Program-made: the position numbers and the translations under genes
From: Desulfuromonadales bacterium
GTDB lineage: Bacteria > Desulfobacterota > Desulfuromonadia > Desulfuromonadales > UBA2197
DNA length: 64,000 nt
Assembly: GCA_034370465.1 (NCBI GenBank)
Contig: JAXMLA010000317.1
Coordinates: forward strand, 270 to 64,269
Reading direction: 5' to 3'
Shown: one piece after another, positions 3,185 to 43,789 of the stretch
How positions within the stretch are numbered: position 1 is the first letter of the stretch
Layout of the letters: each line of letters starts with the position of its first letter
Notes under the pieces: model-generated
Told to the model about the DNA's origin: nothing
The model's input: only the letters and a program-made list of their open reading frames with translations
Database searches by the model: none

Positions 3185-3330
3185 CGTTAACTTTAAATAT
3201 ATTTTGCACTATAAATAAAAATTACTCTTATGCAAACATTTTTTTGTTTTAAAATCTATCTTTCTGGCGAAGAGGGATGATCAGCGTATGAAAAACTGGC
3301 GAAAAGTTCACTTCCGCATTTTCTTGAAAT

Positions 3331-3365
3331 AAAAAAGGCCGCCTCCAGTGATGAAGACGGCCTTT
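3331..3365 (-). terminator. intrinsic terminator downstream of tRNA-Asn
   Basis: 8-bp stem AAAGGCCG (3334-3341) / CGGCCTTT (3358-3365). It is followed on the minus strand by a T-run (plus-strand A-run 3331-3336). Confidence 0.6.
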
Positions 3366-3373
3366 GATTCGTT

Positions 3374-3449
3374 TGGCTCCCCGAGCAAGACTCGAACTTG
3401 CGACAAGGCGATTAACAGTCGCCTGCTCTACCGACTGAGCTATCAGGGA
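3374..3449 (-). tRNA. tRNA-Asn (anticodon GTT)
   Basis: The reverse complement folds as a cloverleaf: TCCCTGA TA GCTC AGTCGGTA GAGC A GGCGA CTGTTAA TCGCC TTGTC GCAAG TTCGAGT CTTGC TCGGGGA G CCA. Length is 76 nt with an encoded CCA. Confidence 0.95.
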
Positions 3450-39033: not shown

Positions 39034-41274
39034 ATGCGAAAGATAAATCACTTATTACCCCAAACCAAGGGACGGATCGTTTTTATGTTGGACTCTACAT
39101 TGCTACGTCGCTTAAAGTTGCGCTCCCGCTACTGGATCGTTGCCGTTGTCTTTGTTTCCCTCTTTGCTCTCTCCGCGTCCCTGTTGACGCCCTCGGATGC
39201 TTCGAGTCCGACTGCCGCCACAGAAAACTACGCCGCCAATCGCGCCAAGCTGATCAGTTATGTGCTGCGCAATCAATTGGCGCGCCATCATTACAGCAAC
39301 AAAACTTTCGATGACGAGCTTTCCCGCGCCGCTTACAGCCTCTTTCTCAAACAACTCGATGCACAAAAGCGCTTTCTGCTGCAAGCCGACATCGACCAGC
39401 TCCAGCCCTACGCGCTACTGATTGATAACGAAATCAATCAGGGTGTCATTGAACTCCCGGCCATCGCCGCGCGGATCATGGATCAACGCGTCGTGCAAGT
39501 CCAGGACCTGGTGCATGCCCTCCTCAAAGAAGAGATCGACTTCACCAAAAGTGAAAAGATCGAAACCGACAACGCCAAGCTGAGCTACTGTCGCGACCTG
39601 CCGGAACTGCGCGAGCGCTGGCGAAAAATCATCAAGTATCAGCTTCTCAGTCGCTATATGACTCTCCTTGAGGACCAAAAGAGACTCGAAAGCGCCGGTA
39701 AGAAGATCGACAAAGAACTCATGGCTGAAGCTAAAGTCAAGGTTGGCAAGAGTCTTGACCAGTTCTTTACCCGGATGCTGGAACAGAAGGAGCAGGATCG
39801 CTTCGACAGTTACTTTTCCGCCATCACCGAAGCCTTTGACCCCCATACCAACTACCTGCCGCCGACGCAGAAAGAGGATTTCGACATCAGTATGCGCGGC
39901 TCCCTCGAAGGGATCGGCGCCACCCTCCGCGAAGAAGACGGCTACATTAAGGTGACACAGATTATCCCCGGCAGCGCCTCGTGGCGGCAGGGAGACTTAC
40001 AAGCTGAAGACATCATCCTCAAGGTGGCCGAAGGGAAGGCCGAGCCCGTGGACATTACCGACATGCGCCTGCGCGATGCCGTCACCCTGATTCGCGGCAA
40101 GAAGGGGACCGAGGTCCGTTTGACCGCGAGAAAACCGGACGGCAGCAAGATCATCATACCGATCGTGCGCGACGTCGTGCAGATTGACGAAACCTTTGCC
40201 CGCGGCACAACCATCAAGGACGAAAAGAGCGGCAAGATTTACGGTTATATCCGCATCCCCTCTTTCTACCGCGACTTTCAGGAAAGCGGCAAGGGCGGCC
40301 GTAACGTCACGGACGATGTCCGCACCGAGATCGCCAAGCTTAAAGATAGCAATATCGACGGCCTGATTCTTGATGTGCGCAATAACGGCGGCGGCGCCCT
40401 TTCCGATGCCGTGTCGATTGCCGGGCTCTTCATCAATCCCGGACCGGTCGTCCAGGTGCGCAGCAGCAACGGCAAAACCCAGGTCCTTGATGACGACAGC
40501 AAGACCGTTTATAGTGGCCCCCTCGCCATCCTCGTCAATGAATTCAGCGCCTCAGCATCAGAGATTCTCGCCGGCGCTCTACAGGACTATCGCCGCGCCG
40601 TCATCATCGGCAGTGCCCACACCCACGGTAAAGGGACAGTGCAGGCGATGCTCGATCTCGATCGCGACATCAATCTGCGCAATATGGACCAGTTCCTCCC
40701 CCTTGGAGCGCTCAAAGTAACCATCCAGAAGTTTTATCGCGTCAGCGGCGGTTCGACCCAGTATCGCGGCATTGTCCCCGACATTATCCTCCCTGACCGC
40801 TTACAGTACCTCAAGAGCGGCGAGCGCTATCTCGACCACTCCCTTCCTTGGGACACGATTGAAGCGACTAACTATCGCCCCTGGCCGCAAGCGCTCCCGG
40901 ATATGGAGTGGCTGCAAAGTCGCAGTCAGCAGCGCATTAAAACTGATCCGGCCTGGCAGACCATCAACAAGGACGCGGCCCGCGCCAAGGAGCGGAGCGA
41001 AAAGACCGTAGTCTCCTTGCAATTCACTGAATTACATCGCGACTGGCTGGAAGAGAAGAAGCTGGCAGAAGCGCAGCGGGCGGAAAGCGGCATGCCGAAA
41101 CATGGCGAAAAGGGGAGCAAACGTGAGCCGCTGTTGACCGATGCCGACAAGCTCAAGCAACTCGCCAAGGATACCGAAAAGGATCCGGTCGCCAAGGAAG
41201 CAATGGCGGTCCTCACCGATATCACCACCCACCCTACGGCCGCGACCAAAAAGGCGATCAAGCTGATCAATTAG
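39034..41274 (+). CDS. prc: S41-family carboxy-terminal processing (tail-specific) protease
   Basis: A PDZ region (GYIKVTQIIPGSASWRQGDLQAEDIILKV), and catalytic blocks LILDVRNNGGG and SASASEI...TFGKG-like HTHGKGTVQ. ATG 39085 is an alternative start. Confidence 0.9.
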   Translation: MRKINHLLPQTKGRIVFMLDSTLLRRLKLRSRYWIVAVVFVSLFALSASLLTPSDASSPTAATENYAANRAKLISYVLRNQLARHHYSNKTFDDELSRAAYSLFLKQLDAQKRFLLQADIDQLQPYALLIDNEINQGVIELPAIAARIMDQRVVQVQDLVHALLKEEIDFTKSEKIETDNAKLSYCRDLPELRERWRKIIKYQLLSRYMTLLEDQKRLESAGKKIDKELMAEAKVKVGKSLDQFFTRMLEQKEQDRFDSYFSAITEAFDPHTNYLPPTQKEDFDISMRGSLEGIGATLREEDGYIKVTQIIPGSASWRQGDLQAEDIILKVAEGKAEPVDITDMRLRDAVTLIRGKKGTEVRLTARKPDGSKIIIPIVRDVVQIDETFARGTTIKDEKSGKIYGYIRIPSFYRDFQESGKGGRNVTDDVRTEIAKLKDSNIDGLILDVRNNGGGALSDAVSIAGLFINPGPVVQVRSSNGKTQVLDDDSKTVYSGPLAILVNEFSASASEILAGALQDYRRAVIIGSAHTHGKGTVQAMLDLDRDINLRNMDQFLPLGALKVTIQKFYRVSGGSTQYRGIVPDIILPDRLQYLKSGERYLDHSLPWDTIEATNYRPWPQALPDMEWLQSRSQQRIKTDPAWQTINKDAARAKERSEKTVVSLQFTELHRDWLEEKKLAEAQRAESGMPKHGEKGSKREPLLTDADKLKQLAKDTEKDPVAKEAMAVLTDITTHPTAATKKAIKLIN

Positions 41275-41348
41275 CACCGGCAGAGATGAGTTGACAGACG
41301 GCAAAGAGGTGTGATACCTGATTCTCAAATTTTCGGAGTCGTGAAGCG

Positions 41349-41465
41349 ATGAACCAGCGTCCTTTCCATCAAGATCTGCAGACTGCAACCGCACGAGCTA
41401 CCAGCGCGGCTGCCGCGGCAGTCGCAGTTCCATCCGCTGCCCGACGCTACGAGACCCGGTCATAA
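41349..41465 (+). promoter_or_regulatory. candidate leader-peptide ORF (38 codons, Ala-rich) of an attenuator
   Basis: GGAG lies 10 nt upstream of ATG 41349. The peptide is MNQRPFHQDLQTATARATSAAAAAVAVPSAARRYETRS. Five consecutive Ala codons at 41406-41420 overlap hairpin-forming sequence. See findings. Confidence 0.3.
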
Positions 41466-41494
41466 CCCCCTTTTTCCGTCTCTCATAAGATATC

Positions 41495-41530
41495 AGGCCG
41501 CGGCAGACACGTCGCGGCCTTTCCTTTTTC
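41495..41530 (+). terminator. intrinsic terminator ~30 nt upstream of aminotransferase SD
   Basis: AGGCCGCG (41495-41502) / CGCGGCCT (41513-41520), extendable by 2 bp, followed by TTCCTTTTTC. Confidence 0.7.
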
Positions 41531-41561
41531 AACGAGCCAAGATCCTTTAAGGAGAAGATTC

Positions 41562-42866
41562 ATGCGTAACAACATTGTGCCGATCGGTGGCGGAGAGATG
41601 ACTTACGAGATTCGCGCCATTGTCGACATTGCCGACAAACTCAAAAAGCTCGGACTCAAGACCAATATGGAGAATATCGGCGATCCCGTCGCCAAGGGGG
41701 AACAGATCCCCGCCTGGATGAAACAGATCGTCGCCGATCTCGCCATGGAGAATGCCTCCTACGGCTACTGCCCGACCCGCGGCGTCCTTGAGACCCGGGA
41801 GTATATCGCCGAACTGACTAACCAGCGCGGCAAGCTGCAGATCACACCCGAGGATATCCTCTTCTTCAACGGCCTCGGCGATGCCATTCAAAAGGTCTAC
41901 GGCTGCCTGCGCCACGAATGTCGGGTGATTGTCCCCTCGCCGACCTATTCGACCCACTCGTCCGCCGAGGCCGCCCACGCCGGTCAACCGGCGGTGACCT
42001 ACCGCCTCGCCGCCGAGAACCACTGGTATCCCGACCTTGAAGAGCTGCGCAACAAGGTCAAGTTCAACCCGGCGATCTCCGGCATTCTGTTGATCAATCC
42101 CGACAACCCCACCGGTGTCGTTTATCCGGAAGCGATCCTGCGCGAAATCGTTGCTATTGCCAAAGAATATGATCTCTTCATCATCAGCGACGAGATCTAT
42201 CACAATATCACCTACAACGGCACTTCTACCCTGCCGATCTCCGACCTCATCGGCGATGTTCCTGCTATCGCCATGAAAGGGATCAGCAAAGAGTTCCCTT
42301 GGCCGGGCGGCCGCAGCGGCTGGATCGAGGTCTACAATGCCGACAAAGATCCGATCTTCGCCAAATATGTCGCTTCCATCCTCAACGCCAAACTCGTCGA
42401 GGTCTGCGCCACCACCCTGCCGCAGATGGCGGTCAAACCGATGATGACCCACCCGGAATATCCGGTTTATCTCGAAGAGCGCAAGAATCGATACCAGCGC
42501 GCCTCGAATATCGCTTACGACATCCTCAAGGATGTTTCCGGCCTCAAGGTCAATCGCACCAACGGTGCTTTCTATATGGCGGTTGCCTTTGATGACGCTG
42601 TGCTGACCAGCACCCAGAGCTTGCCGATTGCCAACGGGGAAGTCAAAACCCTCGTCGAAGGGCTGGTTAACACTCCCGGCTGCTCCCTCGACAAACGCTT
42701 TGTCTATTATCTCCTTGCTTCGACCGGCATATGCACTGTCCCGCTCACCTCCTTCTGCACCACCCAGCCGGGTTTCCGCATTACCCTTCTGGAGCGGGAT
42801 GAAGCCGAGCTGACGCGCATCTTCCAGACGATTGCGGCGAGTGTGCAGGCGTATTTGAAGTCTTAG
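41562..42866 (+). CDS. PLP-dependent class I aminotransferase, AlaA (alanine-forming) family-like
   Basis: The pattern is shared with E. coli AlaA: Y-IR...NIGDP...GYC...RG...INPDNPTGVVY...DEIY. AAGGAG SD at 41549. Confidence 0.85.
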   Translation: MRNNIVPIGGGEMTYEIRAIVDIADKLKKLGLKTNMENIGDPVAKGEQIPAWMKQIVADLAMENASYGYCPTRGVLETREYIAELTNQRGKLQITPEDILFFNGLGDAIQKVYGCLRHECRVIVPSPTYSTHSSAEAAHAGQPAVTYRLAAENHWYPDLEELRNKVKFNPAISGILLINPDNPTGVVYPEAILREIVAIAKEYDLFIISDEIYHNITYNGTSTLPISDLIGDVPAIAMKGISKEFPWPGGRSGWIEVYNADKDPIFAKYVASILNAKLVEVCATTLPQMAVKPMMTHPEYPVYLEERKNRYQRASNIAYDILKDVSGLKVNRTNGAFYMAVAFDDAVLTSTQSLPIANGEVKTLVEGLVNTPGCSLDKRFVYYLLASTGICTVPLTSFCTTQPGFRITLLERDEAELTRIFQTIAASVQAYLKS

Positions 42867-42886
42867 TCATTGCTGGATAAAAATTA

Positions 42887-42925
42887 CAAAAACGCCGCTG
42901 AGAAATGGCTTCAGCGGCGTTTTTG
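42887..42925. terminator. bidirectional intrinsic terminator
   Basis: AAAAACGCCGCTGA gaaatggct TCAGCGGCGTTTTT, between convergent genes. Confidence 0.7.
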
Positions 42926-42943
42926 TGCTTATGTTGAACCGTA

Positions 42944-43789
42944 TCACGGGATTGAAAATTCAAGGTGGTAGCCGGCGCCGGCATCCTGGCGCAAAAGTTC
43001 GACCAAGGTGGGGAGAACGCTTTGCATTGTTGCGGGCAGAGTGTAGGGAGGATTGACGATAAAGAGGCCGCTACCGTGCATGCCGAAGCCGTCGCCGGAG
43101 GGCGATTGAACCGTGAGGGTGACGTGCAGCCAGCTCGGGAGATTGAGAGCCTTGAGACGATCGGGCAGCGCCTGCGCCTCGCTCCGCTGTAACTGCGGAT
43201 ACCACAGGGCGTAGGTGCCGGAAGCAAAGCGCTTCACTGCATCGCCAAGCAGCTTGACCACCCGCTCGTAATCGCGCTTCTCTTCGTAAGGAGGGTCGAT
43301 GAGGACCAAGGCGCGCCGGGTCGGCGGCGGCAACAGTCCTTTCAAGCCGGTAAAGCCGTCGCTTCCCGCGATTTTCACCTGTTTTCCGGCCGCGCTAAAG
43401 GTGGCGCGCAGCAGTTCCTGATCGCGGGGATGGAGTTCAAAGAGCCACATCCGGTCGTCAGGCCGCAGCAACTGACCGGCCAGCCAGGGAGAGCCGGGAT
43501 AGCGGCTCAGCTCCGGACCGGGGTTGCAGGCACGAATTTGCTGACAAAAGGCCGCAAGGGGCGCCGGGAGACCCTGCTGCTTCCACAGCCGGCCAATGCC
43601 GGCAGCGTATTCGGCATTCTGGGTGGCATACCCCTGATCGAGCTCATAAAAGCCGGCCCCGGCGTGGGTATCAATATAAGAAAAGGGCTTCTCTTTGCGC
43701 CGAAAATAGTTCAGCAGCTCCACCAGCACCAGGTGCTTGAGGAGATCGGCGTGGTTGCCGGCATGAAAAGCGTGGCGATAGCTGAGCAT
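42944..43789 (-). CDS. rlmJ: 23S rRNA (adenine2030-N6)-methyltransferase
   Basis: MLSYRHAFHAGNHADLLKH...IDTHAGAG...LIDPPYE. Confidence 0.9.
   Translation of the reverse strand: MLSYRHAFHAGNHADLLKHLVLVELLNYFRRKEKPFSYIDTHAGAGFYELDQGYATQNAEYAAGIGRLWKQQGLPAPLAAFCQQIRACNPGPELSRYPGSPWLAGQLLRPDDRMWLFELHPRDQELLRATFSAAGKQVKIAGSDGFTGLKGLLPPPTRRALVLIDPPYEEKRDYERVVKLLGDAVKRFASGTYALWYPQLQRSEAQALPDRLKALNLPSWLHVTLTVQSPSGDGFGMHGSGLFIVNPPYTLPATMQSVLPTLVELLRQDAGAGYHLEFSIP

Follow-up and report, generated by a model that had tools for sequence, protein, structure and literature searches.

We analyzed a 64,000-nucleotide (nt) stretch of a Desulfuromonadales contig (JAXMLA010000317.1), hereafter the window, in which a gap of 287 base pairs (bp) separates the stop codon of a protease gene at position 41274 from the ATG of an AlaA-like aminotransferase gene at 41562. 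This gap probably harbors a ribosome-mediated leader-peptide attenuator that tunes the aminotransferase to the supply of charged tRNA-Ala. We also lean, with somewhat less assurance, toward the view that it belongs to an undescribed class of regulator: a cis-acting leader of alanine codons that exerts direct control over an alanine aminotransferase gene, is retained across the order Desulfuromonadales, works as a default-ON two-state switch (without an anti-antiterminator, or 1:2, helix), and is tuned by rare codons (GCA and GCG for alanine, with CGA between the blocks of alanine codons). What we observe is conservation of every part of the leader, selection on alanine at the codon level, covariation in both competing helices, conserved spacing, and exclusive linkage to one gene.

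A sequence-only reading of this DNA had proposed an alanine attenuator here. We read the features of the window directly from the 64,000-nt sequence and rechecked every coordinate of that reading; the -35 box, the GGAG, the 38-codon open reading frame (ORF) with 11 Ala and 4 Thr codons, the Ala-run hairpin, the 10-mer that occurs twice, the terminator, and the Shine-Dalgarno (SD) sequence of the aminotransferase gene all lie where it had placed them. The leader combines four of the features that define an attenuator, namely a leader ORF with its own SD sequence, a cluster of cognate codons, an intrinsic terminator, and a mutually exclusive antiterminator. Its parts are as follows, all on the forward strand.

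41291-41296 (+): TTGACA, -35 box of the leader promoter (direct reading)
41310-41318 (+): TGT-GATACC, extended -10, which fits the family consensus yTGTGATAAy
41335-41338 (+): GGAG, SD sequence of the leader ORF, 10 nt ahead of its ATG
41349-41465 (+): leader ORF of 38 codons plus stop, product MNQRPFHQDLQTATARATSAAAAAVAVPSAARRYETRS, with 11 Ala and 4 Thr codons
41376-41427 (+): 5' hairpin around the Ala codons, -23.6 kcal/mol, within the minimum-free-energy fold
41385-41399 (+): first regulatory block, A-T-A-R-A, with the rare Arg codon CGA at 41394-41396
41406-41420 (+): five Ala codons in succession, GCG GCT GCC GCG GCA (direct reading)
41410-41421 (+): AT1, putative lineage-specific antiterminator strand, complementary to 41497-41507
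41434-41448 (+): AT2, putative antiterminator strand at the family-homologous place in the 3' part of the ORF, aligned with the consensus UGUCCAUUGCCUU
41495-41520 (+): intrinsic terminator hairpin AGGCCGCGGC/GTCGCGGCCT, 10 bp with 8 G-C pairs, -20.5 kcal/mol
41521-41530 (+): U-tract of the terminator, TTCCTTTTTC (direct reading and terminator search)
41549-41554 (+): AAGGAG, SD sequence of the aminotransferase gene, beginning 18 nt past the U-tract

Because only 18 nt lie between the U-tract and the SD sequence, there is no room for a separate aminotransferase promoter, a point already made from the sequence and confirmed here. The Ala-run hairpin (CGCGG at 41405-41409 with CCGCG at 41413-41417) is nested in a bulged stem formed by 41376-41386 and 41418-41427. 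The repeated 10-mer, GCCGCGGCAG, occurs at 41412-41421 and 41497-41506 and nowhere else in the window; counting its palindromic overlap gives 3 matches, against 0.35 expected by chance.

A leader module that stays with the aminotransferase gene

To place the window in a family, we scanned genomes, one per species, and obtained 80 loci with an orthologous aminotransferase of 68-96% identity, all of them Desulfuromonadales-type. This survey covers orthologues of approximately 64% identity and up. In blastn comparisons the core around the Ala run is kept at a constant distance 5' of the aminotransferase gene. The module lies directly upstream of this gene in 77 of the 78 loci with sufficient upstream DNA, regardless of which gene stands further upstream, and the order and spacing of its parts are the same across the 77; the remaining locus, L061, has a variant terminator. 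The protease gene prc is the immediate upstream neighbor only in L001 and L168, so the prc/aminotransferase pair that the sequence-only reading took as the setting of the module is not its general context; the module follows the aminotransferase.

Each part of the leader has a recognizable family form. The promoter reads TTGAC[AT]-N13/14-yTGTGATAAy, and its TTGAC[AT], which keeps a constant distance to the -10, occurs in 73 of 74 scored loci (the other has TTGACC). The -10 of the window had been called weak; its sequence was given correctly, but it matches the family consensus TGTGATAAy, and its GATACC hexamer recurs in L001 and L019. Approximately 71 of 77 leaders have an SD-like motif ahead of the start codon chosen for them. 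The ORF itself spans 23-49 codons and contains a conserved Ala-rich core of the form ..AAARA[NST]SAAAAAAA.. or ..AAAARAFQAA..VHHP, and its stop codon lies 17-48 nt ahead of a terminator of 9-14 bp. The terminator is near-invariant in sequence, AAGGCCATGG[GA]C-loop-xCCATGGCCTTTTT, with a T-run after the hairpin in essentially all family members.

We built a covariance model, R1, from 75 orthologous leaders without the window or L001. R1 matches the window at 41385-41527 over its full length (model positions 1-138) with 66.2 bits and an E value of 9e-15, a held-out match that excludes a chance arrangement of the parts. Three further copies kept out of training, L001, L170, and L171, reach 67-104 bits, and every locus has exactly one full-length match, always just upstream of the aminotransferase. 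A pattern scan of metagenomes for the terminator motif returned 87 matches, among which the model score separates leaders (at least 54 bits) from others (at most 43 bits). Fifty-seven copies fall in the upper group, and all 54 that could be tested precede an orthologue of 64-89% identity. Because the genome and metagenome matches all precede this aminotransferase gene, the leader element is tied to it and to no other gene seen. In total we count approximately 140 leader copies in several sub-architectures.

The other 30 metagenome matches, at 43 bits or less, are unrelated plain terminators. In these loci (among L088-L167, e.g., L100, L114, L136, and L156) the hairpin AAGGCCATGG-loop-CCATGGCCTTT stands behind unrelated genes; since the same hairpin ends such genes, the sequence of the terminator stem alone does not identify a leader.

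Two further observations concern the distribution of the element. Insertions of 100-330 nt separate the leader terminator from the aminotransferase start in L017, L021, L040, L049, L052, L067, L077, and L171, and those of L049 and L017 hold GCGCCTC-type repeats and inverted repeats resembling small mobile or repeat elements. R1 also gives a weak partial match elsewhere in the window, at 3329-3449 on the reverse strand (19.9 bits, E value 0.001). We rejected this site as a second leader: it coincides with a tRNA-Asn gene (3374-3449, reverse strand) and its own terminator, and the resemblance is a matter of chance.

The leader ORF carries a coding signal that is specific to its frame and to alanine. 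Alanine makes up 31% of the family ORF frame, compared with 7% and 3% of the other two frames, and in the conserved Ala codons the first two positions have an entropy of 0-0.6 bits, compared with 0.7-1.9 bits for the third. Near-invariant Ala codons surround a CGA anchor at -2, -1, +1, +4, and +5. Those at -2, -1, and +1 are conserved in 52-66 of 66 distinct leaders, and codons +4 to +8, which are homologous to the Ala run of the window, encode alanine in 37-64 of the 66. The N- and C-terminal parts of the leader are free in length and sequence while the frame is retained, the frames also contain Thr, Ser, and Arg codons, and searches with family profiles gave no protein family match for the peptide. 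The sequence-only reading had cautioned that GCN codons arise easily in GC-rich palindromes, a concern that the frame-specific excess of alanine and the variation confined to third positions do not bear out. Nor can GC-rich pairing explain the first Ala block, since in the short subfamily this block is conserved while being largely unpaired in the consensus fold.

Codon choice in the leader is also distinctive. GCA supplies 33% of the leader Ala codons and GCG 34%, whereas the aminotransferase genes use them at 7.6% and 21%. Of 66 distinct leaders, 62 have CGA as the Arg codon between the Ala blocks; this codon provides 4.8% of Arg codons in the aminotransferase genes and may be a programmed slow codon. 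Rare regulatory codons are known from the leu leader, where CUA is used in leuL.

Terminator, antiterminator, and ribosome position

Covariation is present in both of the helices that would form the switch. The family terminator helix is 97% paired, and 7 of its 12 pairs have changed on both sides. The competing antiterminator joins the 3' end of the ORF (consensus UGUCCAUUGCCUUGA) to the 5' arm of the terminator (UCAAGGCCAUGGGCA). Its conserved strand consists of the last approximately 10 ORF codons, just ahead of the stop, and in most relatives the pairing is GUCCAUUGCCUU with AAGGCCAUGGGC. This helix is 74% paired, compared with 32-42% when the partner is slid by 1-3 columns, and it shows covariation. 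One position covaries three ways (alignment columns 163, 235, and 245), linking the antiterminator strand with the terminator 5' arm and the 3' arm: the 5'-arm base is A in 22 loci, and each time both partners are U. RNAalifold independently predicts the antiterminator in two subfamilies when the terminator 3' arm is withheld. The check on covariation suggested by the sequence-only reading therefore gave positive results for the terminator and the family antiterminator; for the 5' hairpin of the window, 41376-41427, no covariation can be obtained because the pairing is identical in L001. In L061, whose terminator stem is unrelated, a weak duplex (-12.3) occurs at the expected place over the stop codon.

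In the family consensus, the spacing of these elements would suit ribosome control. An alignment made without regard to structure puts the start of the stop codon 2-14 nt (median 8) past the antiterminator core at 74 of the 77 loci, and the last Ala codon upstream of this core starts at a median distance of 15 nt from it. A ribosome at the stop would therefore cover the antiterminator strand, which a ribosome stalled on any Ala codon would leave exposed. We modeled this choice by folding leaders with a 28-nt mask in place of the ribosome. Equilibrium folding of full leaders was uninformative, because the 12-bp GC-rich terminator is always most stable, and was replaced by transcripts truncated before the terminator 3' arm. 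Shifting the mask off the Ala run and onto the stop codon lowers 5'-arm sequestration by more than 0.1 in 44 of 77 loci and raises it in 3. The sequence-only reading had doubted that the ribosome geometry was ideal; this doubt holds for the window copy and not for the family consensus.

These patterns suggest the following mechanism. Transcription would start at the conserved promoter near 41325, a start site predicted from the promoter position, and a ribosome would translate the 38-codon Ala-rich ORF as RNA polymerase nears the terminator at 41495-41530. If the 3' strand of the ORF is free, it would pair with the terminator 5' arm before the 3' arm is made, forming the antiterminator and allowing read-through into the gene. 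With ample Ala-tRNA the ribosome would reach the stop, 2-14 nt past the strand, and cover it, so that the terminator forms and transcription ends. With scarce Ala-tRNA the ribosome would stall on Ala codons at least 12-15 nt upstream and leave the strand free; the resulting read-through would yield more aminotransferase and thereby more alanine. In this scheme we infer that the ORF is translated, that ribosomes stall in it, that the switch responds to alanine, and what substrate the enzyme uses.

The window copy departs from the family arrangement and is a derived variant. The window and L001 have the terminator stem GGCCGCGG, whereas the rest of the family has GGCCATGG; in the window this AT-to-GC change is compensated on both terminator arms. 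With the change to GGCCGCGG arose a 10-bp pairing between the Ala run (41410-41419) and the terminator 5' arm, which is absent from loci with the stem GGCCATGG. This AT1 duplex is perfect over its 10 bp, at -24.4 kcal/mol, compared with -20.5 for the terminator and -23.6 for the local hairpin 41376-41427. An antiterminator made from the two copies of GCCGCGGCAG, as the sequence-only reading had envisaged, thus exists as a candidate only in the window and L001; in the rest of the family the strand is the 3' end of the ORF, equivalent to approximately 41434-41448 in the window. There, AT2 pairs with 41493-41503 at -13.7 kcal/mol, more weakly than AT1. The covariance model and MAFFT agree in aligning AT2 with the consensus strand, and both place the neighboring register CUGCCCGACGCU (41437-41448) on it. 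For the window we considered, and rejected, a clean triple covariation (TCC-GC-TGCC, GGCC-GC-GG, C-GC-GGCC), since its third leg is ambiguous.

The 5' hairpin 41376-41427 is a candidate anti-antiterminator or pause hairpin in the window lineage, and a shorter hairpin over the Ala run is predicted in the long subfamily. In the window, a ribosome stalled at A13, A15, or A17 would cover the 5' half of the hairpin and free AT1, and after unhindered passage of the ribosome the hairpin would re-form and trap AT1. On this folding model the window would be a classical 1:2 / 2:3 / 3:4 kinetic four-segment scheme, near the original proposal. The full-length minimum-free-energy fold of the window also pairs 41328-41359, which spans the leader SD and start region, with 41435-41457 in the 3' part of the ORF, including the family-homologous antiterminator strand. 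Such a pairing could hide both the ribosome-binding site and AT2 in untranslated RNA; the fold z-score of the whole leader is only -1.98.

Selection clearly acts on the leader in this lineage. The leader ORF of the window matches that of L001 at 110 of 114 nt (96.5%), without synonymous changes, and the promoter stretch does so throughout (100%); the aminotransferase gene, by comparison, retains 73% identity at its 4-fold degenerate sites. Identity of 96.5-100%, set against the neutral 73%, indicates purifying selection on both leader and promoter.

Weighing the proposed attenuator against other explanations

Several results weigh against an alanine attenuator of the kind we propose. The model depends on kinetic assumptions, given that the terminator is predicted to be most stable at equilibrium. 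Antiterminator duplex energies at single loci beat dinucleotide shuffles only modestly (median z -1.07, with 20 of 77 loci below -2; RNAduplex), and given this weak single-locus significance our argument for the antiterminator is based on its conserved position and its covariation. The covariation counts are in turn drawn from related sequences with few independent changes, and they overstate the number of independent events. An anti-antiterminator (1:2 helix) is absent from the family consensus in both RNAalifold and truncated folding, and the untranslated leader is therefore predicted to read through, unlike trp; a 1:2 helix is typical of the trp type and is not required for attenuation. In the window the AT1 duplex is more stable than the terminator, and ribosome-mask folding of the window and L001 shows no fall in sequestration (0.73 to 0.81). 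The leader seems dispensable, because the close relative L168 (aminotransferase 92% identical, prc upstream; L168:1390-1510) lacks it: approximately 180 nt are missing between the -35 box GTTGACAGA and the terminator, the -10 and the entire leader ORF are gone, and the terminator stands alone in an 84-nt gap between prc and the aminotransferase. This gap is either a natural attenuator deletion or an assembly artefact of a Logan contig. The attenuator model also does not account for the invariance of the motif CGAGC, described below. Finally, that alanine is the substrate of the enzyme is suggested only by similarity at approximately 1e-45.

A leader that reads through by default raises the question of whether alanine is what is sensed. 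Since the antiterminator is predicted to form without a ribosome, any block to leader translation should lead to read-through, and the same switch might report overall ribosome progress (any starvation, antibiotics, or low initiation), with the richness in alanine being secondary, for example a by-product of GC-rich pairing. We judge such a general translation-stress attenuator unlikely. The upstream ORF (uORF) of whiB7, the closest known case, reacts to many starvations and drugs (PMC10274678), and the Thr, Ser, and Arg codons of the leaders would suit a general sensor as well. However, Ala codons are the sole conserved coding feature of the leaders, with their first two positions fixed and the third free, and the first Ala block of the short subfamily persists despite being largely unpaired. 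The regulated gene, moreover, is always an AlaA-like aminotransferase, and the bias toward rare Ala codons points to tuning by Ala-tRNA.

The peculiarities of the window copy allow a second alternative, to which we give little credence: that the family element works, but that in the window and L001 the stem GGCCGCGG pairs with the Ala run so well that the terminator is mostly bypassed or otherwise regulated, with the element perhaps heading for loss. AT1 not only beats the terminator in energy but also forms in the predicted folds at nearly all ribosome positions; between stall and stop positions no fall in sequestration is predicted, and L168, the closest third relative, has its leader deleted. 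A degenerating or rewired copy is difficult to reconcile with the near-identity of leader and promoter in the window and L001 at a neutral identity of 73%, or with an ORF, SD sequence, promoter, terminator, and U-tract that are all intact. The hairpin 41376-41427 can, in addition, kinetically trap AT1, following the classical four-segment logic.

The motif CGAGC bears on a third explanation. At 41394-41398 in the window and at the same place in L002-L080, it is nearly invariant nucleotide by nucleotide, including at the third codon position, which coding alone does not explain. Together with the lack of synonymous changes between the window and L001 and a terminator whose sequence is conserved beyond what structure demands, this invariance would fit a cis-regulatory RNA that acts through its structure, be it as a riboswitch or as a binding site for an antitermination protein, with CGAGC and the GC-rich repeats as contacts and the ORF incidental. 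We regard this as very unlikely. RNAalifold found no conserved pairing partner for CGAGC in either subfamily, so that the motif lies in no conserved helix, and there is little conserved structure besides the antiterminator and one small hairpin. A hairpin GCCGCxC/GxGCGGC with loop GAGCUAACA around CGAGC suits some loci, was not recovered by RNAalifold, and was dropped. As the sequence-only reading had recommended, we searched Rfam 15 for known families; neither the window nor two canonical members matched any family, the best scores being 21-25 bits against gathering scores of 38-59, all implausible. Without translation there is no easy explanation for the 3-nt periodicity, the conserved SD sequence and start, a frame that persists across indels, or the constant spacing of stop and antiterminator.

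That the hairpin is a plain terminator of the upstream protease gene, and the ORF a chance frame or an independent small protein, is scarcely credible: the hairpin is indeed the first terminator after prc, directly follows prc without a leader in L168, and resembles the AAGGCCATGG...CCATGGCCTTT hairpins common elsewhere as plain terminators, but in at least 75 loci the upstream gene is not prc and the whole module stays with the aminotransferase, the module has its own conserved promoter, and the peptide has neither conserved termini nor a protein family match.

An alanine leader-peptide attenuator remains the explanation we favor. The proposal made from the sequence of the window is supported at the orthologous loci, where the ORF frame, the Ala run, the terminator, and the alternative pairing are all conserved.

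Known regulators, the downstream enzyme, and significance

Although attenuation by leader peptides is a textbook mechanism, to our knowledge few amino acids are covered by it, namely Trp, His, Phe, Leu, Thr, and Ile/Val. The classical attenuators of amino acid operons are trpL, hisL, leuL, thrL, ilvL, and pheL of E. coli and Salmonella. Like these, the present leader has a promoter-proximal short ORF with an SD sequence, cognate codons (including rare synonymous ones, as with CUA in leuL), a terminator just before the gene, an exclusive antiterminator that uses the terminator 5' arm, and, in the family consensus, a stop codon placed so that a terminating ribosome would block the antiterminator. 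It differs in using alanine, in preceding a single aminotransferase gene instead of a pathway operon, and in having no sequence homology or Rfam match to them. Its antiterminator strand is part of the ORF and precedes the stop; a 1:2 helix is missing from the family consensus, with the untranslated state predicted to be ON; and an invariant rare CGA stands between the Ala blocks.

T-box leaders with an Ala specifier (e.g., that of alaS in Firmicutes) also sense tRNA-Ala charging and choose between terminator and antiterminator in a 5' leader. They bind uncharged tRNA directly and need no translation, and the Rfam search with the window and two canonical members gave no T-box match. The synthesis of alanine from pyruvate is likewise the function regulated by Lrp (alaA and alaC in E. 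coli) and AlaR (alaT in B. subtilis). Those are DNA-binding regulators of transcription initiation, whereas the present switch consists of RNA and an ORF downstream of a constitutive-looking promoter.

The sequence-only reading stated that no alanine attenuator had been described. This holds for attenuators placed before an alanine aminotransferase, of which a full-text literature search (not covering the attenuator survey of Lopatovskaya et al. 2010) found none, and a search for an Ala attenuator or Ala leader in Geobacter or Desulfuromonas surfaced only whiB7 papers. As a general statement it has to be amended, since an indirectly acting alanine-sensing leader is known from mycobacteria and actinomycetes. 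This leader, the Ala-rich uORF of whiB7, detects alanine starvation in mycobacteria and increases the alanine aminotransferase AspC via the transcription factor WhiB7 (PMC10274678; 10.1101/2025.10.10.681568). The two systems share a uORF with an antiterminator/terminator switch, universal enrichment in alanine, stalling that leads to read-through (proposed here), and an output that includes an alanine aminotransferase (aspC for whiB7, a putative one here). In contrast to the present leader, which would act in cis on the aminotransferase gene, that of whiB7 governs a transcription factor, through which aspC and resistance genes are activated in trans. The whiB7 uORF is also longer, varied in composition, responsive to many starvations and antibiotics, and unrelated in sequence. 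The Desulfuromonadales leader is not a member of the whiB7 type, as its downstream gene is an aminotransferase and not a WhiB7 factor and its hosts are not Actinobacteria.

The genes flanking the leader in the window are as follows.

39034-41274: S41 tail-specific protease (prc), upstream neighbor of the leader
41562-42866 (+): pyridoxal phosphate (PLP)-dependent class I/II aminotransferase of 434 amino acids, AlaA-like (NCBIfam PRK06855, 723 bits; Pfam Aminotran_1_2)
42885-42927 (+): terminator after the aminotransferase gene, an 18-bp stem followed by a T-run, very strong and bidirectional-looking
42944-43789 (-): RlmJ gene, convergent with the aminotransferase gene

This downstream terminator and the convergent orientation of RlmJ mark the aminotransferase gene as monocistronic. 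The closest solved structures of its product are P. furiosus 1xi9 (1.5e-45) and E. coli AlaA 4cvq (5e-42). We take 1xi9 to be the Pyrococcus furiosus alanine aminotransferase, although its deposited name is simply "putative transaminase". Several sources label homologues of the enzyme "alanine-synthesizing transaminase", and the NCBIfam name for PRK06855 is generic.

If the proposed mechanism is correct, alanine would join the amino acids sensed by direct attenuation, having previously been sensed in this manner only indirectly, via the whiB7 uORF. An abundant central amino acid with redundant routes of synthesis would then still be sensed through tRNA charging, and the leader would give the poorly characterized PRK06855 aminotransferases a physiological role, with a regulatory argument that Desulfuromonas-type reducers of metals and sulfur use them to form alanine. 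It would also represent a compact natural alanine-responsive switch of approximately 200 nt. The approximately 140 leaders form a comparative set for attenuator evolution, which includes the window lineage, with its changed stem and new antiterminator strand, and conserved rare codons such as CGA.

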